A stretch of DNA of 64,000 bases from Schmidtea polychroa (lineage: Eukaryota), in NCBI GenBank assembly GCA_044892525.1, contig CM097885.1, positions 29,638,001 to 29,702,000 of the forward strand. The letters are read 5' to 3'. The translations under genes and the position numbers were made by a program. The stretch's first letter is position 1. Each line of letters opens with the position of its first letter. This document shows, one piece after another, positions 21,779 through 45,968 of this stretch. The notes below the pieces were generated by a model, which was not told the DNA's origin, ran no database searches, and was given only the letters and a program-made list of their open reading frames with translations.

Positions 21779-23591
21779 ATTGCAATCATTTTTCTGGATG
21801 GAAGTTATGAATTCCAAAAACCTATTGACCAGCATAATGCAATACACTGGTTCAACTTCTTTATCAAAAGAACGATAGTCGGAGTACCAAGATCCTTCAA
21901 TCTAAGGAAAAGTATACCATATCTTAATAAAAGCCAAACAGTTCCGCAGACCAATGTGGAAACAAATGGAGACATAACCAACCACTCTAACCTGAAAGGT
22001 CTACAATGCCGAGATATTAGTAGAAAAAGGAGAAAATGCTCAACTAATGAATCCGTAGAACATCAATCAAAGAGAAAAAATAATGAGGAAAATACTGAAC
22101 AACCAGTAAATCAGGAAGAAGAAACACATGTAACTCATCAAACCACAACAAGTCCCAATCAATCATTAAATGAACAAGCATGACGGGATGGGGAAAGGAC
22201 AACAAGTGCAGTCCTACCCCCACAAGAAAATACTATCATTTCAACACTCCAAAACCCTGACAACCGTCTAATAGGAGGAACAATGCAAATCAAACAAATT
22301 GAAGCTTCAATCGATCTAATAATTGACAATGAATGCAGAATAGTTTGTGCAAAAGAAGGTTGCAACAAAACCTATACTGATATCTTCCATGCTGAGCACC
22401 ATTCCAGAAATAAACATAATCTACCTTCTGGAACAAGAACAAAGGTCAAATGTGTACAATGTGAGAACCCAATCGAAGGAGATCAAGTAAATGACCATAT
22501 CAACAACCACAAAGACGAAAGAAAAGAAGACCTGATTAGACAAATGAATATCATCCTACCAAATAAAAGAGATACGCCTTACGGACCATATGATCTACTA
22601 TCACAAGCGGCGTTGGAAATATATATTAGGAATCTAATAATGTATGACAAAAGGGAAATAGCATACATTGGCCCCAGAGCATCAATATACCTTAACAACA
22701 ACAATAAACACGCTCTGCTCAAAGAAATACAACTGCACAACCTTGTCGGCTGGAAACTGGCAATCTGGCTCATCCACTGGAATGGTAACCACTGGGCAGT
22801 GTACCTAGCTAATAAAAACACTAGACAATCCATAATCCTGGATTCAGCTAACTCATTTACAATCAACCAAGAATTTTTAATGAAAAAGAATATGGATTCA
22901 ATTCTTAATACCGCATCAGAAGAGGATAAACCCTTCCTGAGATTGCAGATTGAGCATAAACCTACCCAATCTAACCAATATGACTGCGGCCCATATGTAC
23001 TACAATTCATAAAGGACTTTCTAAATAATCCTGAAAGAACTAGATACAACGAGCCAAACACGAAAGAAATTAGAGAAAAAATATGCGAATTAATAACGGA
23101 AGAATTAAAAAATAAAGATAATGGAATAAAACAAATCAATGATCCTGAAATCGCAGAGCTACTGAAAAAATTCTCACTACATCAATACACAATTGAACAG
23201 ATCCTAGAAAATTTCAGAAGAATATACGAAAGAGACAATCTAAAACCAAAAAGAAATTCTAAACTAAAGATTCCAATGGCTAAATGCTCTTATCAGATCC
23301 AACGATTATATGCCATCAATCCTGGAAGAGCTATTAATGAAATAAACAAAGCCACTGATTCTACTCCAGAACTACAAACAGAAGTAATGAACATCTACTT
23401 CACCAGACAAAATCCACAAACAAATCCAGAAAATATTCTAATATCGAAAAGAACCGCTGACTGGATAACCGACAAAAAGATCAAAAACAAGGAAATCACA
23501 ATAACAATCAAAAGAATGGAAGATAAAGCACCAGGAGCAGACAAAATTCCTATACGACAATGGAAAACCTGGAACAAAGATAGGGCATTAA
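21779..23591 (+). pseudogene. Non-LTR retrotransposon, upstream part (Zn fingers, Ulp1-like protease, pre-RT), interrupted by the palindromic element
   Basis: CAKEGC..HHSRNKH, CVQC..HINNH, IHWNGNHWAVY..ILDS..QSNQYDCG and KAPGADKIP; continues at 38118. Confidence 0.9.
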
Positions 23592-23714
23592 AGTAGTATG
23601 ATGTGAGCTCCCCAGATCAGGAGCTCCCCGCGCCACATATACCCCCTCCCCCCCCCCCCGGGAAAAAAAAAATTTTTTTTTTAATTTTTTGTTTTAATTA
23701 ATTGGCCTGGCGGG

Positions 23715-24782
23715 CTCACACTTTTTTTCATCCCAAAAATTAATGTTCCCACCAACGGATTTTATTGGACGATACCTCATCTTAAAGCTCAGTCCAAGAC
23801 CTTTCGATTGATCCATAGAAGGTATCATCATCATTAATATTGACAAAGTTATTAACAATTGATGACCACCATCTTTTCAACGTTAAATTATTATTATTAT
23901 TCAAAATATTATTAATTGGCCGGGCGGGGACATACTTTTTCTCATCCCAAAAATTAATGTTCCCATTATCCGAATTTATTAATAGATAGCTTATTTTGAA
24001 GCGTAGTCTAAGACCTTTCAATTGAGCCATAGAAGGTATCATCATCATTAACATCGGCAAAGTTATTAAAGTTTTACCGAGACCATTTTTCAAGGTCATT
24101 TATTTTTCAAAATATTATTTTCAAGGTCAAGGTCAAGGTCATTTATTTTTTCAAGGTCATTTATTTTTTCAAGGTCATTTATTTTTTTCAAGGTCATTTA
24201 TTTTTTCAAGGTCATTTATTTTTTCAAGGTCATTTATTTTTTCAAGGCCATATTTTAAAATTTAAATGTACAGAGTTCCCGACAACGATAATTATTCAAC
24301 GATAGCTGATTTTAAAGCCCAATGCAAGACCTTTCGATTGATTCATAGAAGGTATCATCATCATTATTATTGACAAAGTTATTAACAATTGATGACCACC
24401 ATCTTTTCAACGTTAAATTATTATTATTATTCAAAATATTATTAATTGGCCGGGTGGTGACATACTTTTTCTCATCCCAAAAATTAATGTTCCCACCAAC
24501 GGATTTTATTGGACGATACCTCATTTTAAAGCCCAATGCAAGACCTTTCGAATGAGCTAATGAAGGTATCATCATCATTATTATTGACAAAGTTATTAAC
24601 ATTTTACCAAAAATCATTTTCAAGGTCATATAATTATTAAGTGGTCTGGCGGGCCCCTACTCTTTTTCATCCCAAAAATTAATGTTCCCATTATCCGAAT
24701 TTATTGGACGATACCTCATCTTAAAGCTCAGTCCAAGACCTTTCGAATGAGTCATAGAAGGTATCATCATCATTAATATTAA
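23715..24782. repeat. Subterminal ~200-bp degenerate tandem repeats
   Basis: CATCCCAAAAATTAATGTTCCC..AAGACCTTTC..GAAGGTATCATCATCATTA recurs near 23728, 23943, 24473 and 24668, with a partial unit near 24320; mirrored at ~36900-37990. Confidence 0.88.
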
Positions 24783-25040
24783 CAAAGAGAATGACTCACC
24801 CAATGACTCACCCAACGATGTCTAATATTTTTAGAACGATGACTCATCAAGGTCATTCCCAAGGTCATATGACTCATCAAGGTCAAGGTCATTTTTTTTT
24901 AATTTAATTTTTTTGTTTTAATTAAGTAATCTTTTTATTTTCAAGGTCATTTAATTTTCAAGGTCATTTAATTTTTCAAGGTCATTTAATTTTCAAGGTC
25001 ATTTACTTTTCAAGGTCATTTACTTTTCAAGGTCATTTAT
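24090..25040. repeat. 17-19-bp TCAAGGTCATTTA-type repeat clusters
   Basis: Clusters at 24090-24250, 24847-24891 and 24941-25040; mirrored as TGACCTTGA at ~36645-37615. Confidence 0.9.
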
Positions 25041-25078
25041 TAAAATAATTATTATTTTCTAAGTTTTTAGTTTCTAAG

Positions 25079-25080
<2 letters not shown>

Positions 25081-25150
<70 letters not shown>
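25081..25150. repeat. (TTA)n microsatellite
   Basis: Perfect trinucleotide run; others at 25678-25717 and 26338-26418, with (AAT)n mirrors at ~35263-35340, ~35961-36010 and ~36538-36603. Confidence 0.97.
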
Positions 25151-25675
25151 CAATATATATACTCTTAATCTATCCGACAAGATATTCTGTCTCCCTAAGG
25201 GTATTGCTCACAAGGGCACTACTCACATGGGTAATTGTCACAAGGGTACTACTCACATTCAACATGTCGTAAATTATTTTCAAATACAAGTTCAAAGTAT
25301 TATTATTTATTTTAACACGCACGGGAGTTATTATTATTATTATCATATATAGTCAGAGTTTATCCGACAAGATATTCTGCCCCCCTATGTGTACTGCTTA
25401 CATAGGTAATGGTTACAAGGGTACTTCTCACATTCAACATGTCTCAAAGGGTATAATATAATTATTATTAAATTCCGACCAACTTAAATCAATGAAGGGG
25501 TAGAACAAAATATATTACGTTGCGGTATTTTAAAATTTAAATATATTTTAAAAACGTATTTTGATACTAAAGTTTACTTAATTAACAAAGACATAATTAT
25601 TGCACATGCTTTGCATAAATATTATTATTTTTTAAATTTTCAATATTTTCTTTTAAAGTATTAACACGCGCGGGA

Positions 25676-25717
<42 letters not shown>

Positions 25718-25719
25718 GT

Positions 25720-26336
25720 TAATGAAAACTCTAAAATATGGTTTACACACACACACATGCACAACTCATTAACCATTATTATTATTATCATTATTAGTGA
25801 AAACCTAAAATATTTTCTACACACACACACACACACACGACCCATTAACAATTATTTGTATCAATATTAGTGAAAACCTAAAATATCTTCTACACACATA
25901 TACAACCCATTAAACTTTATTATTATTATTATTATTGCAAATATTAGTCAAAAACATAAAAACACACACTCAACCAATTAACAATTATTATTATCAATAT
26001 TATTATTATTGCAAATACTAGTCAAAAACTTAAAATTTTATTTTTTTTTTACACACACACACAACCCATTAAACTTATTATTATTATTATTATTATTGCA
26101 AATATTAGTCAAAAACCTAAAATATTATTTACACTCACACAACCCATTAACAATTATTATTATCAATATTAGTGAAAACCTAAAATATTTTCTACACACA
26201 CACACACACAACCCATTAACCATTATTATTATTGCAAATATTAGTCAAAAACATAAAAACACTCATAAACCATTATTATTATCAATATTCGTGAAAACCT
26301 CAAATATTTTTTACACACATATACAACCCATTAAAC

Positions 26337-26340
<4 letters not shown>
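25720..26340. repeat. Degenerate ~70-bp minisatellite with CA and TTA tracts
   Basis: Repeated AATATTAGT(G/C)AAAA(A)CCTAAAATATT..ACACACACAACCCATTAA; mirrored at ~35340-35960. Confidence 0.85.
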
Positions 26341-26402
<62 letters not shown>

Positions 26403-28444
26403 ATTATTATTATTATTAGTGAAAAAACCTTAAATAATTTTTACATACTAAGTTATGGGGTAGAGTATTATTATGTTTGCAGTATTCTGTGTTTGCCTTT
26501 ACAGGAAGTTGTCAATAAGGAGCGATAATTTTACACACACATTCTATATACACATACCTTGTTTAACATGGGTGTATATACTCCTAGTCTATCCGACAAA
26601 ATATTCTGTCCCCCTATGGGTATTGCTCACAAAGGTACTACTCACACTCAACATATCGCAAGGGTATATTAATTATGGTTAGTAAATAAAACCTATCACA
26701 CATACTTTAATATTTAAACGAAAAAAAAAATCAAGACAAGAGAGGACAAGGCAAAGTTTATGCATTTAGTATTGCCAGGTCTAATGAGCAGTGACCAAAT
26801 ATCTGTGCCTGAAAGACACGGTGGATATTTGTTCGCGTCCACAAGGGTCGTCTGTGCCTCCCCCAAGTGGGGTCAGAAGAACCTGGGCATTATAGCTTTC
26901 CGTACGGAACATTACGCCTAGCATGGGTAGTCAACTACCAGCACATTCGAAACGTATAATTTCAAAATACATGCGTCATTGGCACTATAACCAAATTAAT
27001 TAATGTTTTCACTAACACAAATATATATTTACAGAGGCCTCCCACTAGTTGGATTACAACCGCCCACCACGACGATCAGCTTGTAAATATATATTAATTA
27101 AGGGATAAAGAGGACCCACCCAACCCTATTATATTTAATTTACAAATTTTTCTCGCTCTTCTGCTGGTATTCTATCTCAAAATTATCATCTCCATCGGGC
27201 CATTTGGAATACATCTTGCGAATTGGACATATTTCTTAGTTTCTGATGTGGTGTCAACTATCATTGCTAAAATTTATATTGATTTAAAAGCAATTAACTT
27301 ACATTATCTAACATTTTATCGTCACAGGCTTGATAAATTAGGCAACTGTTATTTGTGGTATACTTTTCAATGTCATTTCCCACCATAAAACACAGATACC
27401 TAAATATAATATATATATATTTTAAAGAATTAATTCATGTCTTACATTAATAATAATATTCTTCAGGTAGTACTTTACAATATCTAATTGCTAAAACATC
27501 GGTTTTTCCCATTTTTCTTGACATTCGTTGAAAGTTTACATAATTTAAGTAAACATTCATGTTGAAGGACACCCACAATCAGCTAATTCATTTAAGAAAT
27601 CCGGAACATAGCAATGTTTCACCATTTTGTCTGGTTCATTTTCTTCTATAATTCATGTTTTATTAAGAAATTTCTAAATCCAGAACATAAGTCATTTAGT
27701 GTTTCACCATTTTGTTCATCTTCTTCATAATCATATAATTCATTTTCTTCATTACTAAGTAAAATAATTAAAATATTGTAGTAAATTCTTTATTTACTTA
27801 CTTTATGGATACTAAAACGAAAGAAATAAAGTTATATCAAAAGTATATTTAAATAAATTAAATTTAAATAATTTAATTTAGTTATTTAAAAATATTTAAA
27901 CAATTTAGTTATTTAAGCATATTTAAACATTAACATTATTATATAGTATAATTTTATATAATATTATAATTTTATGTACACTTATATATCCTTCATTTAA
28001 TTTTTTAAATTCAAAATTTATAATGAAGATTCTTTGAATTAAAAAATATTCTGTTAGTATTTCCAAACAGTAAACAACGAATTCAATAATTAAAATCTTA
28101 ATTTTCATGTTGTTAGGGTTGTGGCCAGAATTTAATCGCCATCTAATCGTTTGTTCTCAATTTCGCTCATTTTTGTTCAAAACATTCAGGTGAGTTGTTA
28201 TCTGGAAAGTTTCTTTGAGCTCAGTTTTGTTAAAACACTCACGGTATTTTTGAGGGACGTGTCACTGTAAATAAATTAACAATGGGTGGTCATCCATACA
28301 TGTTGTTGGTTTGAACTATTGATTTATTTTAGAAATATGTATATTAAAAACATTTAAGGTATCATTCAGTAAAATAATATAGTATTTTTGAGTATTTTTA
28401 GTTGATTTATAAATAACAGTATTTTGATATATCAATAAAGACCA

Positions 28445-30340
28445 TATACTCCTAGTTTATCCGACAAAATATTCTGTCCCCCTATGGGTATTGCTAGCAA
28501 GGGTACTGGTCACACTCAACAAGTCGCAATATTAATCATTTAGAAATTCTTAGGTAAGATAATCAGAAATTTGTGAATATTTTAAATGTAACTTTACACT
28601 TATGTCGAGCGACTAATTTATTGGTTAACTTTTTAGACATTTAAAGCAAAAATTAATTTATTCATCTAATGTTCGTTACAATAGTTAATAATATGAGAAA
28701 AACATGGTCATTATTCATTGATAATTTTAAATTCTTTATCATTTAGAGTAAATTTGTTTGAGGCAAAAAATAATTAAAGGAGTCATAATAGAAATATGGT
28801 TATCATTTATCCAATTAAGGGGCTTATTAGTTAGAAATATAAAGTAACAATTATTTTCTAATTTAATTAGATGATCATTAGACGTAATATATCTTTGCGA
28901 GAAATTTAAGATGTTTGAGTAACCAAAACATGGACATTTTGTGCGATAAATTTATGAATATTGCTTAATTTTGTTATTTTTAGTCATTTAAAATAATATT
29001 TAGCAAAGGTAATTTAGCAAAATATCATTTATCCACCCGATAACAATATTCCTTCAATAGATTAACTGATATTCAACCTATTTAATTTCTGGAAATATAA
29101 TTAAAATCATAAATTTCCTTCATGAAAGTTTAATTTTCTTTAGTTGTCGATGTCTAACTCTTTTAAGTCAATATTTTTGTTACCGTTATCTTCATAATGA
29201 ATGTCCGTCTTTAAAATGTTAAATAAAATAATTTAAAGCAATAACCTTTGATATCAATCCCAATTAATTCTAAAGATTTCAAATATTGCATTGTCAAAAC
29301 CAAGTAAATTAGTCATTACCCATTAATAAAACCGTGGATAATTAATAAAAACTGGTTCTGAAACATAAATTACTGTGCAATAACATTCATCACAACCTCT
29401 AAAACGATATAATTTCACAGGAACTATTCATAGCTGACTATTTCCCTTGAAAATTTGATATTTTACCAATAAGAATATATAAATATTCAAAACATTAACC
29501 GATCCCTCACCAAATATCTTTACCCCTTAAAACACCTTAAATCGTATATATTACCATCTTAACCTTCACTAAATCCAACCGAATATAATTTCATCCACTT
29601 GTGCCCTTTAATAAATCTTAAAATCTATAGAAAATTCTTCAAAATATGAATTTTATTTAATTGTCACAGACATTCCTCCATTGAAATAATTTAGTAGCTA
29701 AATTCAAAGAGTCCACTAAAAGATCAAAATTCATTAAAATAAATATTTAACCACATGTGTCATCAAATACCTAACTAGAGATGATAATATCTCATTGATT
29801 GATCATAATTATAACCATTATAACATGATATATCTTTCAAACTAAATTTAGGTATATTTTACAATAATTTTCAAGTAGATTTTAAATATATCATCATCGT
29901 GAAAAAATTAGATTGTTTCAACTTTAGATTTTCAATATTTTAAAGTTCATCAATGTGTAAATATTCTTAGAAAAATATATGAAAAAATTATTTAGTCAAA
30001 TTATCATTACAAAGTCATCATCATCATCAAAATTAATAAAATATAGCAAATTATCAATAAATTAATTAAATTTATCTTAGAATTAACACTAAACCTTAAA
30101 TATTCTTTCAATTAACATGAAATTCACAAAAAAAAATGTTAGTAAAATCCCGCTAACTCTAAAAAATTACCAATGAATTTAATGCCAAATAATAACCAAA
30201 TATTTGCCTAAATAAAATCATTAAAACACACCAGTACCTTTACGACCAGTACCCTTACGACCAGTACCCTTACGACCAATACCCTTACAAGCAGTACCCA
30301 TAGAGGGAGAAAATATTTTGTCGGATAAACTCCGAGTATA
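28445..30340. mobile_element. Possible nested TIR element (MITE-like, TA-flanked) within the left arm
   Basis: TATACTCCTAGTTTATCCGACAAAATATT at 28445 and its inverted near-copy AATATTTTGTCGGATAAACTCCGAGTATA ending at 30340; subterminal 16-bp ACCAGTACCCTTACG-type repeats; mirror copy at 31341-33236. Confidence 0.5.
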
Positions 30341-30506
30341 TATATAATAAAACGAATTAACAATAACTCCATCAAATTGAATCAGTCAAATTATCACAAA
30401 TTTTAATAAAAAATCTTATTCTAAAGTGGTAAGCAGCGTAAAATCGAAAGATAATTTTAATAACACAGAGATAAAATTAACAATATTATTCTCAGGTGGT
30501 AAGAAT

Positions 30507-31174
30507 ATTTTATTTTTGAGTCTGTTATCCCTCTATTATCATTGCTTACTTGATGTTTTCATAAATTTAAGTAAAGTTAATGCTGGGTATGTGTTCTGAC
30601 ACACTTTGTTATTTTCTTAACTTTGAGAGATTATTTTGATTAAAAAGAGTAATGTATCTTGAATTATCTTTTAGAATAACTGTTTTTGAAATATTTAATG
30701 TAAAATAGTAAATCTCATAATTATTAATTCAATATTAAAGGAGTTAATCAAAATTTAAAATATAAAGTTATCATAATTGCTTAGTCAAATACCATTTGTT
30801 ATGTATGTTTGTCATTTTTGGATTAAATACTTTATCAAAATAATTGTTTATCACATTATTATTATTCGTTAGTCACTCATATATTAGAAATAATTTATAA
30901 ATACTCATCACTTATAGCCCCACCATTTTCCACTAATCCTCCCAACAACTATTTCTTTGAACATTGAATTAAATATTTTTTTTTATTAAAGTGATCATTT
31001 TTATAAATTTTTATGAATTTCATGAAATAATTTTAAATAAATGCAATTAATATATTTCCATCTTATCTATGACACTTCTCGGTATATTTACGTTTACGTT
31101 CCATTAATGAATAATTCAAACCCTTATTTTCACCTTTTTGAATTTCATTATTAATTAATCATAGAATAATGATG
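30507..31174. other. Unique 668-bp AT-rich spacer at the palindrome centre
   Basis: Arm complementarity stops at 30506/31175; no ORF of 60 aa or more in the track. Confidence 0.9.
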
Positions 31175-34100
31175 ATTCTTACCACCTGAGAATAATATTG
31201 TTAATTTTATCTCTGTGTTATTAAAATTATCTTTCGATTTTACGCTGCTTACCACTTTAGAATAAGATTTTTTATTAAAATTTGTGATAATTTGACTGAT
31301 TCAATTTGATGGAGTTATTGTTAATTCGTTTTATTATATATATACTCGGAGTTTATCCGACAAAATATTTTCTCCCTCTATGGGTACTGCTTGTAAGGGT
31401 ATTGGTCGTAAGGGTACTGGTCGTAAGGGTACTGGTCGTAAAGGTACTGGTGTGTTTTAATGATTTTATTTAGGCAAATATTTGGTTATTATTTGGCATT
31501 AAATTCATTGGTAATTTTTTAGAGTTAGCGGGATTTTACTAACATTTTTTTTTGTGAATTTCATGTTAATTGAAAGAATATTTAAGGTTTAGTGTTAATT
31601 CTAAGATAAATTTAATTAATTTATTGATAATTTGCTATATTTTATTAATTTTGATGATGATGATGACTTTGTAATGATAATTTGACTAAATAATTTTTTC
31701 ATATATTTTTCTAAGAATATTTACACATTGATGAACTTTAAAATATTGAAAATCTAAAGTTGAAACAATCTAATTTTTTCACGATGATGATATATTTAAA
31801 ATCTACTTGAAAATTATTGTAAAATATACCTAAATTTAGTTTGAAAGATATATCATGTTATAATGGTTATAATTATGATCAATCAATGAGATATTATCAT
31901 CTCTAGTTAGGTATTTGATGACACATGTGGTTAAATATTTATTTTAATGAATTTTGATCTTTTAGTGGACTCTTTGAATTTAGCTACTAAATTATTTCAA
32001 TGGAGGAATGTCTGTGACAATTAAATAAAATTCATATTTTGAAGAATTTTCTATAGATTTTAAGATTTATTAAAGGGCACAAGTGGATGAAATTATATTC
32101 GGTTGGATTTAGTGAAGGTTAAGATGGTAATATATACGATTTAAGGTGTTTTAAGGGGTAAAGATATTTGGTGAGGGATCGGTTAATGTTTTGAATATTT
32201 ATATATTCTTATTGGTAAAATATCAAATTTTCAAGGGAAATAGTCAGCTATGAATAGTTCCTGTGAAATTATATCGTTTTAGAGGTTGTGATGAATGTTA
32301 TTGCACAGTAATTTATGTTTCAGAACCAGTTTTTATTAATTATCCACGGTTTTATTAATGGGTAATGACTAATTTACTTGGTTTTGACAATGCAATATTT
32401 GAAATCTTTAGAATTAATTGGGATTGATATCAAAGGTTATTGCTTTAAATTATTTTATTTAACATTTTAAAGACGGACATTCATTATGAAGATAACGGTA
32501 ACAAAAATATTGACTTAAAAGAGTTAGACATCGACAACTAAAGAAAATTAAACTTTCATGAAGGAAATTTATGATTTTAATTATATTTCCAGAAATTAAA
32601 TAGGTTGAATATCAGTTAATCTATTGAAGGAATATTGTTATCGGGTGGATAAATGATATTTTGCTAAATTACCTTTGCTAAATATTATTTTAAATGACTA
32701 AAAATAACAAAATTAAGCAATATTCATAAATTTATCGCACAAAATGTCCATGTTTTGGTTACTCAAACATCTTAAATTTCTCGCAAAGATATATTACGTC
32801 TAATGATCATCTAATTAAATTAGAAAATAATTGTTACTTTATATTTCTAACTAATAAGCCCCTTAATTGGATAAATGATAACCATATTTCTATTATGACT
32901 CCTTTAATTATTTTTTGCCTCAAACAAATTTACTCTAAATGATAAAGAATTTAAAATTATCAATGAATAATGACCATGTTTTTCTCATATTATTAACTAT
33001 TGTAACGAACATTAGATGAATAAATTAATTTTTGCTTTAAATGTCTAAAAAGTTAACCAATAAATTAGTCGCTCGACATAAGTGTAAAGTTACATTTAAA
33101 ATATTCACAAATTTCTGATTATCTTACCTAAGAATTTCTAAATGATTAATATTGCGACTTGTTGAGTGTGACCAGTACCCTTGCTAGCAATACCCATAGG
33201 GGGACAGAATATTTTGTCGGATAAACTAGGAGTATATGGTCTTTATTGATATATCAAAATACTGTTATTTATAAATCAACTAAAAATACTCAAAAATACT
33301 ATATTATTTTACTGAATGATACCTTAAATGTTTTTAATATACATATTTCTAAAATAAATCAATAGTTCAAACCAACAACATGTATGGATGACCACCCATT
33401 GTTAATTTATTTACAGTGACACGTCCCTCAAAAATACCGTGAGTGTTTTAACAAAACTGAGCTCAAAGAAACTTTCCAGATAACAACTCACCTGAATGTT
33501 TTGAACAAAAATGAGCGAAATTGAGAACAAACGATTAGATGGCGATTAAATTCTGGCCACAACCCTAACAACATGAAAATTAAGATTTTAATTATTGAAT
33601 TCGTTGTTTACTGTTTGGAAATACTAACAGAATATTTTTTAATTCAAAGAATCTTCATTATAAATTTTGAATTTAAAAAATTAAATGAAGGATATATAAG
33701 TGTACATAAAATTATAATATTATATAAAATTATACTATATAATAATGTTAATGTTTAAATATGCTTAAATAACTAAATTGTTTAAATATTTTTAAATAAC
33801 TAAATTAAATTATTTAAATTTAATTTATTTAAATATACTTTTGATATAACTTTATTTCTTTCGTTTTAGTATCCATAAAGTAAGTAAATAAAGAATTTAC
33901 TACAATATTTTAATTATTTTACTTAGTAATGAAGAAAATGAATTATATGATTATGAAGAAGATGAACAAAATGGTGAAACACTAAATGACTTATGTTCTG
34001 GATTTAGAAATTTCTTAATAAAACATGAATTATAGAAGAAAATGAACCAGACAAAATGGTGAAACATTGCTATGTTCCGGATTTCTTAAATGAATTAGCT

Positions 34101-35278
34101 GATTGTGGGTGTCCTTCAACATGAATGTTTACTTAAATTATGTAAACTTTCAACGAATGTCAAGAAAAATGGGAAAAACCGATGTTTTAGCAATTAGATA
34201 TTGTAAAGTACTACCTGAAGAATATTATTATTAATGTAAGACATGAATTAATTCTTTAAAATATATATATATTATATTTAGGTATCTGTGTTTTATGGTG
34301 GGAAATGACATTAAAAAGTATACCACAAATAACAGTTGCCTAATTTATCAAGCCTGTGACGATAAAATGTTAGATAATGTAAGTTATTTGCTTTTAAATC
34401 AATATAAATTTTAGCAATGATAGTTGACACCACATCAGAAACTAAGAAATATGTCCAATTCGCAAGATGTATTCCAAATGGCCCGATGGAGATGATAATT
34501 TTGAGATAGAATACCAGCAGAAGAGCGAGAAAAATTTGTAAATTAAATATAATAGGGTTGGGTGGGTCCTCTTTATCCCTTAATTAATATATATTTACAA
34601 GCTGATCGTCGTGGTGGGCGGTTGTAATCCAACTAGTGGGAGGCCTCTGTAAATATATATTTGTGTTAGTGAAAACATTAATTAATTTGGTTATAGTGCC
34701 AATGACGCATGTATTTTGAAATTATACGTTTCGAATGTGCTGGTAGTTGACTACCCATGCTAGGCGTAATGTTCCGTACGGAAAGCTATAATGCCCAGGT
34801 TCTTCTGACCCCACTTGGGGGAGGCACAGACGACCCTTGTGGACGCGAACAAATATCCACCGTGTCTTTCAGGCACAGATATTTGGTCACTGCTCATTAG
34901 ACCTGGCAATACTAAATGCATAAACTTTGCCTTGTCCTCTCTTGTCTTGATTTTTTTTTTCGTTTAAATATTAAAGTATGTGTGATAGGTTTTATTTACT
35001 AACCATAATTAATATACCCTTGCGATATGTTGAGTGTGAGTAGTACCTTTGTGAGCAATACCCATAGGGGGACAGAATATTTTGTCGGATAGACTAGGAG
35101 TATATACACCCATGTTAAACAAGGTATGTGTATATAGAATGTGTGTGTAAAATTATCGCTCCTTATTGACAACTTCCTGTAAAGGCAAACACAGAATACT
35201 GCAAACATAATAATACTCTACCCCATAACTTAGTATGTAAAAATTATTTAAGGTTTTTTCACTAATAATAATAATAAT

Positions 35279-35341
<63 letters not shown>

Positions 35342-35960
35342 GTTTAATGGGTTGTATATGTGTGTAAAAAATATTTGAGGTTTTCACGAATATTGATAAT
35401 AATAATGGTTTATGAGTGTTTTTATGTTTTTGACTAATATTTGCAATAATAATAATGGTTAATGGGTTGTGTGTGTGTGTGTGTAGAAAATATTTTAGGT
35501 TTTCACTAATATTGATAATAATAATTGTTAATGGGTTGTGTGAGTGTAAATAATATTTTAGGTTTTTGACTAATATTTGCAATAATAATAATAATAATAA
35601 TAAGTTTAATGGGTTGTGTGTGTGTGTAAAAAAAAAATAAAATTTTAAGTTTTTGACTAGTATTTGCAATAATAATAATATTGATAATAATAATTGTTAA
35701 TTGGTTGAGTGTGTGTTTTTATGTTTTTGACTAATATTTGCAATAATAATAATAATAATAAAGTTTAATGGGTTGTATATGTGTGTAGAAGATATTTTAG
35801 GTTTTCACTAATATTGATACAAATAATTGTTAATGGGTCGTGTGTGTGTGTGTGTGTGTAGAAAATATTTTAGGTTTTCACTAATAATGATAATAATAAT
35901 AATGGTTAATGAGTTGTGCATGTGTGTGTGTGTAAACCATATTTTAGAGTTTTCATTAAC

Positions 35961-36011
<51 letters not shown>

Positions 36012-36536
36012 TCCCGCGCGTGTTAATACTTTAAAAGAAAATATTGAAAATTTAAAAAATAATAATATTTATGCAAAGCATGTGCAATAATTATGTCTTT
36101 GTTAATTAAGTAAACTTTAGTATCAAAATACGTTTTTAAAATATATTTAAATTTTAAAATACCGCAACGTAATATATTTTGTTCTACCCCTTCATTGATT
36201 TAAGTTGGTCGGAATTTATTAATAATTATATTATACCCTTTGAGACATGTTGAATGTGAGAAGTACCCTTGTAACCATTACCTATGTAAGCAGTACACAT
36301 AGGGGGGCAGAATATCTTGTCGGATAAACTCTGACTATATATGATAATAATAATAATAACTCCCGTGCGTGTTAAAATAAATAATAATACTTTGAACTTG
36401 TATTTGAAAATAATTTACGACATGTTGAATGTGAGTAGTACCCTTGTGACAATTACCCATGTGAGTAGTGCCCTTGTGAGCAATACCCTTAGGGAGACAG
36501 AATATCTTGTCGGATAGATTAAGAGTATATATATTG

Positions 36537-36605
<69 letters not shown>

Positions 36606-38111
36606 CTTAGAAACTAAAAACTTAGAAAATAATAATTATTTTAATAAATGACCTTGAAAAGTAAATGACCTTGAAAAGTAAATGACCTTGAAAATTAAAT
36701 GACCTTGAAAAATTAAATGACCTTGAAAATTAAATGACCTTGAAAATAAAAAGATTACTTAATTAAAACAAAAAAATTAAATTAAAAAAAAATGACCTTG
36801 ACCTTGATGAGTCATATGACCTTGGGAATGACCTTGATGAGTCATCGTTCTAAAAATATTAGACATCGTTGGGTGAGTCATTGGGTGAGTCATTCTCTTT
36901 GTTAATATTAATGATGATGATACCTTCTATGACTCATTCGAAAGGTCTTGGACTGAGCTTTAAGATGAGGTATCGTCCAATAAATTCGGATAATGGGAAC
37001 ATTAATTTTTGGGATGAAAAAGAGTAGGGGCCCGCCAGACCACTTAATAATTATATGACCTTGAAAATGATTTTTGGTAAAATGTTAATAACTTTGTCAA
37101 TAATAATGATGATGATACCTTCATTAGCTCATTCGAAAGGTCTTGCATTGGGCTTTAAAATGAGGTATCGTCCAATAAAATCCGTTGGTGGGAACATTAA
37201 TTTTTGGGATGAGAAAAAGTATGTCACCACCCGGCCAATTAATAATATTTTGAATAATAATAATAATTTAACGTTGAAAAGATGGTGGTCATCAATTGTT
37301 AATAACTTTGTCAATAATAATGATGATGATACCTTCTATGAATCAATCGAAAGGTCTTGCATTGGGCTTTAAAATCAGCTATCGTTGAATAATTATCGTT
37401 GTCGGGAACTCTGTACATTTAAATTTTAAAATATGGCCTTGAAAAAATAAATGACCTTGAAAAAATAAATGACCTTGAAAAAATAAATGACCTTGAAAAA
37501 AATAAATGACCTTGAAAAAATAAATGACCTTGAAAAAATAAATGACCTTGAAAAAAAAATAAATGACCTTGACCTTGACCTTGAAAATAATATTTTGAAA
37601 AATAAATGACCTTGAAAAATGGTCTCGGTAAAACTTTAATAACTTTGCCGATGTTAATGATGATGATACCTTCTATGGCTCAATTGAAAGGTCTTAGACT
37701 ACGCTTCAAAATAAGCTATCTATTAATAAATTCGGATAATGGGAACATTAATTTTTGGGATGAGAAAAAGTATGTCCCCGCCCGGCCAATTAATAATATT
37801 TTGAATAATAATAATAATTTAACGTTGAAAAGATGGTGGTCATCAATTGTTAATAACTTTGTCAATATTAATGATGATGATACCTTCTATGGATCAATCG
37901 AAAGGTCTTGGACTGAGCTTTAAGATGAGGTATCGTCCAATAAAATCCGTTGGTGGGAACATTAATTTTTGGGATGAAAAAAAGTGTGAGCCCGCCAGGC
38001 CAATTAATTAAAACAAAAAATTAAAAAAAAAATTTTTTTTTTCCCGGGGGGGGGGAGGGGGTATATGTGGCGCGGGGAGCTCCTGATCTGGGGAGCTCAC
38101 ATCATACTACT
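31175..38111 (-). repeat. Right arm of giant inverted repeat (~6.9 kb)
   Basis: Reverse complement of 23592-30506 apart from a few SNPs and repeat-number differences. Confidence 0.97.
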
Positions 38112-38117
38112 CATTAA

Positions 38118-41072: not shown

Positions 41073-44000
41073 CGAGAAGGGCATGCAGAAGCGAAAATAA
41101 AAAACCCAATCTATGCTCATACCAAATACAGAGATTATACTCAATAAACTCTGGCAAAGCGATAATGCAAATACATAATGAATCATGCAAGGTTATTGAC
41201 CTAACATCAACGTCAATGGACCTGCATTTTACAAAACCAAAGCCACCAAAAATACAGAACATGATTAATATTGCGGACAAAAGACCAGAATGGGAATCCT
41301 CAAAGCCTATTTCAGAGAAAGATGTATTCTTTGCAATAAAAAATAGCAAAGATACAGCGCCAGGAGAGGAAGGAATTCCGGTCAGAGCATAGAAAGAATG
41401 GATGCCTGAGGACCCATTGACTCCAATATTCAATAGAATAATCGAATCCAAAACTATCCCTGATTCTTGGAAAAATAATATAATTTAATGATTTAATTTT
41501 TTTAATTTTTTTATTTATTTTTAATTATATATAAGTTATTGATTAAACTGTTAATTATTTTTTTTACTATTAATTGGCATTTAGTTATCGTTGTTTTTCA
41601 TCTTGGATGCTGGTGGAAAGTTATTTAGGGCTTTTTCCAATTTCATTTGGACGAGGTTCTGAATTGTTCTGAATTTCGAATTTTTCATTGTTTTAAAATT
41701 CTTTTTCATTGAATTAGTTAAACTAAAAAAATGTATTTATATAACTGTTAGAGTTATTATAAATCTGTTGGTACTTCAATATTTTTTGTTAAAATATATT
41801 TGAAATTTTAATATATTTTTTATCTTTAAAATCATATTCTGATATAATTTTCTTTAAAGTTTGATATTTTAGATATATTTTTCATAAATATAATTGTAAC
41901 ATTCTAATTGTTTATTATCATCTTGATCTAAAATTTCAATATTATTATTATAATTAAATGTTTTTTTTAAATTTGGATTAAAATATTTTTAAATTCGATA
42001 TTTGACCTTCCATTTTCAAAAAAAATAATTAAATTTTAAAAATTGTTTTAACTTTTATTTCTAAATATTTTTATTGATATTTTTAAATTTAAATTTTTTT
42101 TGTATATTTTCAATTATTTTTAATAATAAATTAATTTTTATCATTTAAATTTTCTTATGATATTTATGACTTACATACACACTTACATTTTTAACTTTAA
42201 AAAAATACAAATAATTCAACTATAATTAAATAAACCCATTCTGCCAAAAAAAATTTTTTTAATTCAATATTTGAACTTTCAATTTTAAATAATTATTGTT
42301 TACATTTTAATTTCTAAAAATGTTTATCTTAGCCAAAAGATATTTTTATATTTTATTTGATTTTTGTATATTTTAAATTATTTTTAATAATAAATTAACT
42401 TTCTAATAAAAGACCCATATACTCTAATTTTGAGATATTAATCTTAGGCAATAGATATTTTTATATTTTATTTGTTTTTTGTAATTGCAATCATTTTTCT
42501 GGATGGAAGTTATGAATTCCAAAAACCTATTGACCAGCATAATGCAATACACTGGTTCAACTTCTTTATCAAAAGAACGATAGTCGGAGTACCAAGATCC
42601 TTCAATCTAAGGAAAAGTATACCATATCTTAATAAAAGCCAAACAGTTCCGCAGACCAATGTGGAAACAAATGGAGACATAACCAACCACTCTAACCTGA
42701 AAGGTCTACAATGCCGAGATATTAGTAGAAAAAGGAGAAAATGCTCAACTAATGAATCCGTAGAACATCAATCAAAGAGAAAAAATAATGAGGAAAATAC
42801 TGAACAACCAGTAAATCAGGAAGAAGAAACACATGTAACTCATCAAACCACAACAAGTCCCAATCAATCATTAAATGAACAAGCATGACGGGATGGGGAA
42901 AGGACAACAAGTGCAGTCCTACCCCCACAAGAAAATACTATCATTTCAACACTCCAAAACCCTGACAACCGTCTAATAGGAGGAACAATGCAAATCAAAC
43001 AAATTGAAGCTTCAATCGATCTAATAATTGACAATGAATGCAGAATAGTTTGTGCAAAAGAAGGTTGCAACAAAACCTATACTGATATCTTCCATGCTGA
43101 GCACCATTCCAGAAATAAACATAATCTACCTTCTGGAACAAGAACAAAGGTCAAATGTGTACAATGTGAGAACCCAATCGAAGGAGATCAAGTAAATGAC
43201 CATATCAACAACCACAAAGACGAAAGAAAAGAAGACCTGATTAGACAAATGAATATCATCCTACCAAATAAAAGAGATACGCCTTACGGACCATATGATC
43301 TACTATCACAAGCGGCGTTGGAAATATATATTAGGAATCTAATAATGTATGACAAAAGGGAAATAGCATACATTGGCCCCAGAGCATCAATATACCTTAA
43401 CAACAACAATAAACACGCTCTGCTCAAAGAAATACAACTGCACAACCTTGTCGGCTGGAAACTGGCAATCTGGCTCATCCACTGGAATGGTAACCACTGG
43501 GCAGTGTACCTAGCTAATAAAAACACTAGACAATCCATAATCCTGGATTCAGCTAACTCATTTACAATCAACCAAGAATTTTTAATGAAAAAGAATATGG
43601 ATTCAATTCTTAATACCGCATCAGAAGAGGATAAACCCTTCCTGAGATTGCAGATTGAGCATAAACCTACCCAATCTAACCAATATGACTGCGGCCCATA
43701 TGTACTACAATTCATAAAGGACTTTCTAAATAATCCTGAAAGAACTAGATACAACGAGCCAAACACGAAAGACATTAGAGAAAAAATATGCGAATTAATA
43801 ACGGAAGAATTAAAAAATAAAGATAATGGAATAAAACAAATCAATGATCCTGAAATCGCAGAGCTACTGAAAAAATTCTCACTACATCAATACACAATTG
43901 AACAGATCCTAGAAAATTTCAGAAGAATATACGAAAGAGACAATCTAAAACCAAAAAGAAATTCTAAACTAAAGATTCCAATGGCTAAATGCTCTTATCA

Positions 44001-45968
44001 GATCCAACGATTATATGCCATCAATCCTGGAAGAGCTATTAATGAAATAAACAAAGCCACTGATTCTACTCCAGAACTACAAACAGAAGTAATGAACATC
44101 TACTTCACCAGACAAAATCCACAAACAAATCCAGAAAATATTCTAATATCGAAAAGAACCGCTGACTGGATAACCGACAAAAAGATCAAAAACAAGGAAA
44201 TCACAATAACAATCAAAAGAATGGAAGATAAAGCACCAGGAGCAGACAAAATTCCTATACGACAATGGAAAACCTGGAACAAAGATAGGGCATTAAAAGT
44301 GCTATTTAACCATATCATAAAACAAAAGAAGATACCAATAAACTGGAAAACATTTATGACAAAACTAATTATAAAACCAGGAAAAGCCGAAGAAGCATCC
44401 AATCCATCTAACTGGAGACCGATAGCACTAATGCCAACGGCCTATAGAATCCTAATGAAACTACTAAATAAAAGATTATTAAAATGGATCCATGACGGAA
44501 AGCTACTATCTCCATGGCAAAAAGCATTTTAGAAAAAGAAAACGGATGCGATGAGCACAATTTCATAATCAATTGCCTTATGGAAAAAGCAAACAGAACA
44601 AGATACAAAGGCGAACAGATACACCTAGTATTCTTGGACCTCGCAGACGCCTTTGGCAGTATGCCACACGAGGTGATTTGGTACACATTAGAGAGAATGG
44701 GGTTAAATAAAAACACCATTGAACTAATTAAAAATAGCTACCAAGACTGCTTCTCAATATACGAAAGCGGCGAATCCAAATCAGACAAAATTAAAATTGA
44801 TAAAGGGGTCAAACAGGGATGCCCCTTGTCCATGACGCTATTTAGTCTATGTATAGAATTCCTCATAAAAGCTGTAGAGGATCTAAACAAAGGTGCCAAA
44901 ATAGCAGAAACAAAAATAAGTATTCTAGCCTACGCAGACGATTTGGTACTAATCGCAAATAACAAAGAGGACATCCAAATAATGCTTAACACCATATTCG
45001 AAGAGGCAAATAAAGCATGTCTAACCTCTAAACCTGCCAAATGTGGATATTTCAGTGAACAAGAAAACAATGATATCCCAATAATGATCAACAACCAGAC
45101 AATTAGGAAAATCAACAACAATGAACTGTACACATACCTAGGAGTCAGAATAGGAGGACCTAAAAAAAGGAACTTAGACCAACTATTCAAGGAAGCAATC
45201 ACCTACTCTGAAAAGATATTCAAATCAAAACTTAAAGCATGTCAAAAAATAGAAGCATACCAAACATTTATACACTCCAAATTCGTATTCCCTCTCCAAG
45301 GAGAAGACATAAACAAAGGAAACATCGAAGAATACGATAACCAAATCCGAACAAGAATCAAAAAAGATGTTATTGACCTACCTACAAATAGTCCATTTAT
45401 GGATGCAATAATCTATTCCCCAAGAGCAAAAGGAGGTCTAGGAATAACAAAAGTCGCAGACGAGCAACTTATCCAGACCATCGCTAGATACCTAAGGCTA
45501 TTTAACAGTAGCCACATGGACATCAGAAGAATCCTAACAGAAGAAACAATTGATATTGCCAAGATCAGAACAAACCAGACAATCTATACCATTAAAGACG
45601 CAATAAAATGGCTAGATAATACGCATACCAACTCAAAAAGGAACGACACAAAATACAGTTGGATCACTAGAATCAAAACAGCAATAATGGGAATCATGAG
45701 AACCCATAAAATTGAGATAAAACTGTCCATTAATGAGGATGACCAACTAGAAGCAAGAGTCAAATGTGCTACTGAAGAAACACCAGTAGAGGTCAAAGAA
45801 ACGAATAAAATTTCAGCAACACTACACTGGATGATCAAAGAAAGCTATTTCAATAAATGGAAAGCAGCTAAATGCCAAGGCTACATCATAAGCCTCCCAT
45901 ATTCCAAGAAAATGGAATGGGAACTCCCACGGAACTTAGATGATTCAGATTGGCAATTCATAATAAAA
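41073..45968 (+). repeat. Segmental duplicate of 20368-23591 plus 38118-39789, lacking the palindromic insertion
   Basis: Offsets are 20705 before and 6179 after the insertion; the difference 14526 equals 14520 plus the 6-bp TSD. Confidence 0.95.
42484..45968 (+). pseudogene. 3'-truncated non-LTR retrotransposon copy (ZnF-Ulp1-RT)
   Basis: ORFs 42988-44532 and 44514 onward; same frameshift (GCATTTTAG) as the first copy; truncated at WQFIIK before the CCHC and endonuclease. Confidence 0.92.

Follow-up and report, generated by a model that had tools for sequence, protein, structure and literature searches.

Gene-less, whole-length palindromes with Polinton ends in Schmidtea polychroa: a probable satellite of a resident Polinton family

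A 64,000-nucleotide stretch of the genome of Schmidtea polychroa (GenBank assembly GCA_044892525.1, contig CM097885.1, positions 29,638,001 to 29,702,000 of the forward strand; hereafter the window, with coordinates counted from its first letter) carries a gene-less element that has the ends of a Polinton and forms a palindrome over almost its entire length. The element belongs to a family of related copies whose arms are shared with gene-bearing Polintons in several combinations. We propose that it is probably a non-autonomous satellite of a resident Polinton family, a complete palindrome that would have arisen by template switching and would keep its symmetry through a self-annealed intermediate. 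To our knowledge, Polinton replication has never been directly shown, and the model of a self-annealed single strand is still a proposal; gene-less satellites give a rare view of how Polintons are copied and reshuffled.

Re-alignment upheld the anatomy given in a preliminary description of the window, namely the AGTAGT and ACTACT ends, the duplicated CATTAA, and the lengths of both arms and of the spacer between them (Table 1). The arms align in inverted orientation at 99.4% in a single alignment and make up 95.4% of the element. They are separated by three substitutions, two of which had been reported (27294/34387 and 27368/34313) and one of which had been missed (25468/36219), together with four homopolymer or microsatellite length changes and one extra 21-bp unit. 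The insertion breaks the Ulp1-protease/reverse-transcriptase frame of a non-long-terminal-repeat (non-LTR) retroelement, whose domains were called through Pfam on an empty paralogue in which the frame is uninterrupted (42988-44532). The empty site had been described as an allele; the site is real, and it is a paralogue within a tandem duplication whose flanks around the filled and empty sites are 99.97% and 99.94% identical. The target belongs to a tandem array whose units are spaced about 20 kb apart; in the genome as a whole, the empty junction is matched exactly 58 times and its filled left counterpart three times.

The claim that the element holds no recognisable gene also stood. In the unique sequence (arm plus spacer), no stretch free of stop codons exceeds 96 aa, a length matched by 13.5% of 200 shuffles, and a tblastn search of the element with 16 proteins, taken from the helper Polinton introduced below and from the Polinton that neighbours the element, returned nothing at E<0.01. 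By open reading frame (ORF) lengths and this search, the protein-primed B-family polymerase and RVE integrase of autonomous Polintons are absent; by the same search and the shuffle control, so are ATPase, protease and capsid genes. Six-frame reading of the non-coding arm (N) revealed no hidden or decayed gene, and ARAGORN reported zero transfer RNA (tRNA) genes there. The tRNA-like boxes produced by a motif scan belong to another element and not to N; this other element, a polymerase-bearing palindrome of a different family, contains three units that resemble tRNAs, carry A- and B-box motifs and were missed by ARAGORN (L174, 8250-9030).

A search with the spacer gave 41 matches, and in all of the best 30, which were fetched, the spacer is constant and is flanked by inverted arms. 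Two variants of the exact terminal 24-mer occur 139 and 219 times in the genome, and more variants exist; an exact arm 30-mer occurs 1539 times, and 70 of its first 100 matches form 35 inverted pairs in the orientation seen in the window. Extrapolation gives roughly 500 palindromic copies, a count that includes a related family and partly deleted copies. Perfect and mutually different target-site duplications (TSDs) of 6 bp bound all 13 insertions in which both termini were found, seven of them with N arms on both sides (N-N); seven further fetched copies, in which the search pattern did not match one or both termini, lie outside this count. Element length is not tightly held, because the distance between paired termini ranges from about 6 to 17 kb. 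Viral contigs gave 0 matches to the family termini. One N-N insertion has a match to U3 small nucleolar RNA (L035, 1-126) at a distance of about 200 bp.

The terminus of the element also caps gene-bearing Polintons of 16-17 kb, which are composed of two halves. The left, structural half (S) encodes a TATA-binding-protein (TBP)-like product, an A32 ATPase, an rve integrase, capsid-type ORFs and an adenain protease; the integrase, ATPase and protease were called by Pfam-type domain matches and the capsid via double-jelly-roll Atlas clusters. The right half (P) encodes a 1365-aa B-family polymerase, which had zero Pfam or PDB matches and was assigned through Atlas clusters with DNA_pol_B_2 at 0.94-0.98, through visible B-family motifs and through its 27% identity to the polymerase of the Polinton at the window start. 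The terminal region of the window element is 97.8% identical to the end of a copy with P halves on both sides (P-P) and 93-96% identical to an S-N copy. Both relatives that the preliminary description had named as a check on its reading, other copies with distinct TSDs and an autonomous Polinton sharing the terminus, are present in the same genome, and its surmise that the helper belongs to another family than the neighbouring Polinton agrees with a mere 27% identity between the helper polymerase and that of the Polinton at the window start. Its broader reading of the element as a Polinton satellite holds in that the element is non-autonomous and shares ends and TSDs; the N arm does not consist of folded-back helper sequence, which makes the element satellite-type rather than a plain defective copy. 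Because the ends are shared, and because of the TSD length, the element is presumably mobilised in trans by the helper integrase and polymerase. The TBP-like ORF of the helper (154 aa; L041, 3294-3755, minus strand) matches Pfam PF00352 at E 9e-16.

The three kinds of arm reassort. Exact markers number 237 for S, 216 for P and 1539 for N, and 17 elements selected by position among the exact matches to the termini comprise ten N-N, three S-P, three S-N and one unclassified copy. From the S end, 22 of 30 loci run on into the middle of the helper and eight into N. The S-N joints begin in an (ATT)n tract that follows the protease gene, and their points of entry into N lie at 29536, 29871, 30894 or 31111/30433, and at 29478 in a further copy; because two of these entries traverse opposite ends of the spacer, we infer that at least one kind of S-N copy stems from a pre-existing palindrome. 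All 30 loci found by the polymerase start are S-P, in a sample biased toward the query, and on contig C1 a P marker lies behind 43 of 91 S markers. The P-P copy, of 12.1 kb, has two polymerase genes facing outward and turns inside tandem repeats of about 60 bp that hold a 10-12-bp palindrome, and a marker spacing of 768 vs 652 bp implies a second P-P centre. Such copies are rare (0/17 in the census; 4/77 marker matches on C1). Neither N-P nor S-S was found among the 17 census elements or upstream of the 30 polymerase starts, and no N marker lies within 7 kb of any of 11 P markers. Terminal haplotypes are common to N-N, S-N and S-P copies, and one N-N copy lacks the spacer and has a new centre at window position 29748 (L180). 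Two further arrangements were observed: a pair of outward-facing protease-gene markers 2.7 kb apart (G000:C1 near 213.086-213.089 Mb), possibly a fold-back centred in the structural half, and a gene-bearing copy that seems nested in, or adjacent to, an N arm from its own family (L049/L048).

Variants have been copied from arm to arm, because the two arms within a copy are nearly identical while copies differ from one another. Over whole arms, six N-N insertions carry 3 (window copy), 2, 5, 7, 2 and 40 substitutions between their own arms and the P-P copy carries 4, while the window arm differs from four other copies by 79, 107, 150 and 272 substitutions; a fifth comparison, inflated by misaligned repeats, was left out. 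Near the centre (1418 columns in 26 of the 30 loci, four having been dropped for rearranged or unlike arms), the mean is 0.9 substitutions within a copy vs 5.8 between copies. Across 25 copies, shared minor alleles are present in both arms 51 times and in a single arm 11 times, and private changes in both arms 32 times and in a single arm 14 times; 25 of the 32 come from one copy (L066), which has one private change in a single arm. Three copies have a matching indel in both arms (L184, L185, L191). In the outer 520 bp, where 162 of 393 columns vary between copies, within-copy differences number 0, 0 and 21 in S-P, 8 and 2 in S-N, 0 in P-P, and 0, 1, 0, 0, 0, 0 and 8 in N-N copies; therefore, end equalisation acts in all classes, and it reaches further in palindromes. 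A comparison in which the ends of S-P and S-N copies appeared not to be equalised (5-31 substitutions per 880 bp vs 0-2 in palindromes) was weakened by the outer 520 bp, which are identical in two of three S-P copies, and for that reason end differences were dropped as an argument against repair by pairing of the two ends (panhandle repair). Two copies 300 kb apart (L179 and L192) carry the same one-sided internal deletion, which may mean that an asymmetric form has spread in its own right.

Past the terminal 1-1.5 kb, the N arm matches the helper only in simple repeats and in a motif of about 85 bp, which occurs five times per arm, marks the inner edge of both of the helper's terminal inverted repeats (TIRs) and is present in sister families. 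The arm also holds a GC-rich module with a segment resembling the Alu domain of 7SL, the signal recognition particle (SRP) RNA. Against Rfam RF00017 this segment scores 29.6 bits (E 9e-5), which is below the gathering score of 70, and only model positions 1-44 align well; host 7SL genes score 235-241 bits. All Alu-domain pairs are kept in a sequence diverged from host 7SL, and the bin has 2 substitutions per 900 bases compared among six other copies, far below adjacent bins. SRP was the sole Rfam match in the module, folding was not significant (z -1.9 to +1), and a ribozyme reading, weighed by eye, was dropped. The host 7SL genes stand in a tandem array with a period of 593 bp (L142, G000:C2 near 31.93 Mb). 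Two other families share parts of the arm. Family B, a sister with other termini, is represented by four palindromic copies (TSDs seen in three), one of which adjoins a polymerase-bearing palindrome at 64% nucleotide identity; the inner arms of N and family B are 65-71% identical, about equal to that of the polymerase genes, and no Alu-like motif was found in family B arms. Family C, palindromic with other termini, shares 26265-27146 at about 89% and retains in its outer arm a 42-aa remnant of the first ORF of the helper. Because segments are shared with families B and C, N arms appear to be mosaics passed between Polinton families.

Under the reading that we favour, the satellite would supply only cis sequence, that is, the family termini and the non-coding N arm. 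The protein-primed polymerase of the helper would start at the termini, and the displaced single strand would self-anneal along the 7-kb arm with the 668-nt spacer as its loop, which would restore a duplex end and let one arm overwrite the other; the helper integrase would then insert the product with a 6-bp TSD. Template switching in the course of this replication (fold-back) would produce palindromes; where the switch joins two molecules that are replicating together, halves would be exchanged with the helper, and S-N chimaeras and now and then a copy with unlike arms would result. Helper proteins acting in trans, a hairpin intermediate and extrachromosomal copying are what the shared ends and matched arms suggest, and the satellite may likewise be replicated, packaged and able to interfere. 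Several points weigh against this account. No free DNA form, transcript or particle was observed, and the proposed cycle does not account for where the N arm came from. Arm symmetry is also imperfect: a middle tract of L161/L162 has 40 substitutions between the arms, the arms of L188 are alike only at 83-90% and those of L178 and L183 at 93-96%, two family-B copies differ between arms over their outer 2.5-3 kb, and four of 30 centre loci have rearranged or unlike arms. Because about half of 18 centres, fetched mostly for unusual spacing, show one-sided deletions (three have unlike arms, 83-96%), symmetry is not needed for persistence. Additionally, since the outer 520 bp are identical also within two of three S-P copies, the data do not distinguish end-directed panhandle repair from self-copying that proceeds outward from the centre, and chromosomal gene conversion would yield a similar pattern.

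This last process is the core of an alternative that we regard as unlikely, in which the helper mobilises the element as proposed and host gene conversion equalises the arms after insertion, within a chromosomal palindrome. Patchy tracts are present, as conversion would leave, and partly unequal copies are most alike beside the centre, as if seeded from the loop (L161/L162, L166/L167, L152/L153). However, without L066, private changes in a single arm outnumber those in both arms by 14 to 7 and so build up; the window copy and a second assembly of the same insertion on contig C94 retain common arm differences; and copies whose arms are 83-96% alike persist, one with an intact TSD. Equality within a copy extends also to the outer ends of S-P copies, which lie 16-17 kb apart. 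Taken together, the single-arm changes that persist and the copies with unlike arms count mildly against host conversion. It is similarly doubtful that the N arm is a selected module making small RNAs, either 7SL Alu-like or hairpin, that aid or restrain the helper, with S-N and P-P copies as complementing segments. The near-invariant Alu-like bin, the retention of every Alu-domain pair despite divergence from host 7SL, the sharing of the GC-rich module with family C and of the inner arm with family B at the level of the polymerase, and the abundance of the arm 30-mer would fit such a module; yet the compared copies are related mosaics, in which low variation is weak evidence, the folding scores are not significant and the Rfam score lies under its cut-off, family B arms lack the motif, and P-P copies are rare where ordinary S-P copies are plentiful. 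A more far-reaching version, which we consider improbable, would make the half-genome the unit of heredity. The S, P and N arms would each replicate from their own terminus and be re-paired by template switching, so that the family would behave like an endogenous virus that reassorts and is optionally segmented, with S-N and P-P able to complement each other; N would be an old satellite arm moved between Polinton families with different termini, several-fold commoner than helper arms and kept either for an RNA module with a function (a mimic of the 7SL Alu domain, cf. adenoviral VA RNA) or for dampening of the helper by hairpin RNA.

Two remaining explanations concern the nature of the element itself. 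Very long inverted arms that contain tandem repeats are reminiscent of foldback elements, and the family might be a classical cut-and-paste foldback transposon with Polinton-like ends and another transposase. This is very improbable, and largely refuted, given that the terminal sequence matches Polinton ends at 93-98% identity over about 1 kb, that N-N, S-N and S-P copies have terminal haplotypes in common, and that N arms are physically joined to a Polinton structural half. An assembly or fold-back read artefact is scarcely credible; the preliminary description had argued against the latter from the arm differences. Across four short-contig assembly runs no record spans the whole element; however, all four cover 30/30 element bins, and contigs in two of them (X5 and X8) run across the empty site with an exact joint, 23585 to 38112. 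The flanks differ and their TSD regenerates the empty site, the same insertion was separately assembled on C94, and the family has its constant spacer in 30/30 copies and perfect TSDs in 13/13.

Kapitonov and Jurka, in 2006, and Repbase are said to list non-autonomous, gene-less or gene-poor Polintons with Polinton ends and 6-bp TSDs. We know of no whole-length palindrome or arm swapping among those non-autonomous Polintons, which are the weakest point of our claim to novelty. Three features of a non-autonomous Polinton are seen here, namely (AGT)2//(ACT)2 termini, an insertion-specific 6-bp TSD and a gene-bearing partner whose termini match. In the accessible parts of the sources, vertebrate Mavericks have the same end motif, a length of 12.7-24.6 kb and TIRs of 46-1447 bp (PMC8097293), and Polintons/Mavericks share with our family the ends, the perfect TSD, a length near this range and, for the helper, core genes in two modules (PMC8097293, PMC6431247); here, in contrast, there are no genes, the arms reach 6.9 kb, and halves reassort (S-N, N-N, P-P). 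Snap-back defective genomes of adeno-associated virus (AAV) are described, in the portion available, as self-complementary with one virus end, in left-end and right-end versions (PMC8235507). Both ends likewise come from one terminus here, and P-P, whose arm derives from the helper genome, is the direct analogue; the N arm does not so derive beyond about 1.5 kb, and unlike AAV snap-backs the family is integrated with TSDs in hundreds of copies, the commonest arm not stemming from helper coding sequence. For adenovirus and PRD1, a panhandle model proposes that pairing of the inverted terminal repeats of a displaced strand restarts replication and restores end homology, and the accessible text states that panhandles still lack direct evidence (PMC11886824); in the satellite such pairing would cover 95% of the molecule. 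In Polisuviricotina, deep module exchange has been inferred via tandem integration or mobile replicases, at least in the part of the preprint available (bioRxiv 10.64898/2026.10.13.758929); there, too, the replication module is partly decoupled from the structural module, whereas here half-genome swaps are recent, lie within one family and involve a non-coding arm. Nothing equivalent appears in the accessible parts of PMC3014272, PMC11414722, PMC6431247, PMC4028283 and bioRxiv 10.64898/2026.07.28.741278, the last of which gives terminal palindromes of 52 nt. No description of whole-length palindromic gene-less Polintons was found in a literature search that reached few subscription papers and did not extend to Repbase entries, supplements or the founding Polinton study.

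Hundreds of arm-copied palindromes, fresh fold-back junctions and recurrent half swaps are footprints that the self-annealed model predicts, and the model now has a concrete molecule to expect, a 7-kb duplex with a 668-nt loop. The family would add a satellite or defective-genome layer to a group of endogenous DNA viruses for which none is established, a layer estimated at about 1% of the genome and invisible to gene-based surveys. Finally, half swapping would offer a simple route to the known decoupling of replication and capsid modules.

Table 1. Coordinates, in the window, of the palindromic element, its parts and its target site
Feature	Position	Strand	Remarks
Element proper	23592..38111		14,520 bp; begins AGTAGT, finishes ACTACT
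TSD CATTAA, left copy	23586..23591	.	6 bp; from sequence
TSD CATTAA, right copy	38112..38117	.	6 bp; from sequence
Left N arm	23592..30506	+	6915 bp, non-coding; from self-alignment
Right N arm	31175..38111	-	6937 bp, inverted copy of left arm; from self-alignment
Spacer (fold-back loop)	30507..31174	.	668 bp, unique; not itself a decayed palindrome
Terminal region common with helper	23592..24592	+	AGTAGT terminus and tandem sub-terminal repeats
Motif of about 85 bp	26576..26660	+	One of five per arm
Other copies of the motif, left arm	25157-25227, 25347-25408, 28444-28528; 30290-30341		Last copy inverted
GC-rich module	26750..27150	.	Least variable arm part among six other copies; common with family C
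7SL (SRP RNA) Alu-domain-like segment	27037..27080	-	44 nt; model positions 1-44
Mirror copy of Alu-domain-like segment	34601..34644	+	Right arm
Inner arm homologous to family B inner arm	29027..30509	+	65-71%; same end motif
Host site, 5' part of non-LTR retroelement Ulp1-protease/reverse-transcriptase frame	22283..23596	+	Resumes from 38112
Empty paralogous target	44291..44296	.	One CATTAA within intact frame 42988-44532

Elsewhere in the window, a fragment of large-subunit ribosomal RNA (rRNA) lies at 18366-18786 on the minus strand, among nested, near-identical pieces of Ulp1-protease non-LTR retroelements (12123-64000), and the unit of rRNA fragment and Ulp1 sequence recurs every 20 kb or so in arrays on C1 and several unplaced contigs. 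At about 11390-11625, on the edge of an N-gap, is a stretch that starts with AGTAGT and whose first bases recur inverted about 240 bp further on; it is possibly a tiny Polinton-ended palindrome, or else a hairpin in the end of the neighbouring Polinton.

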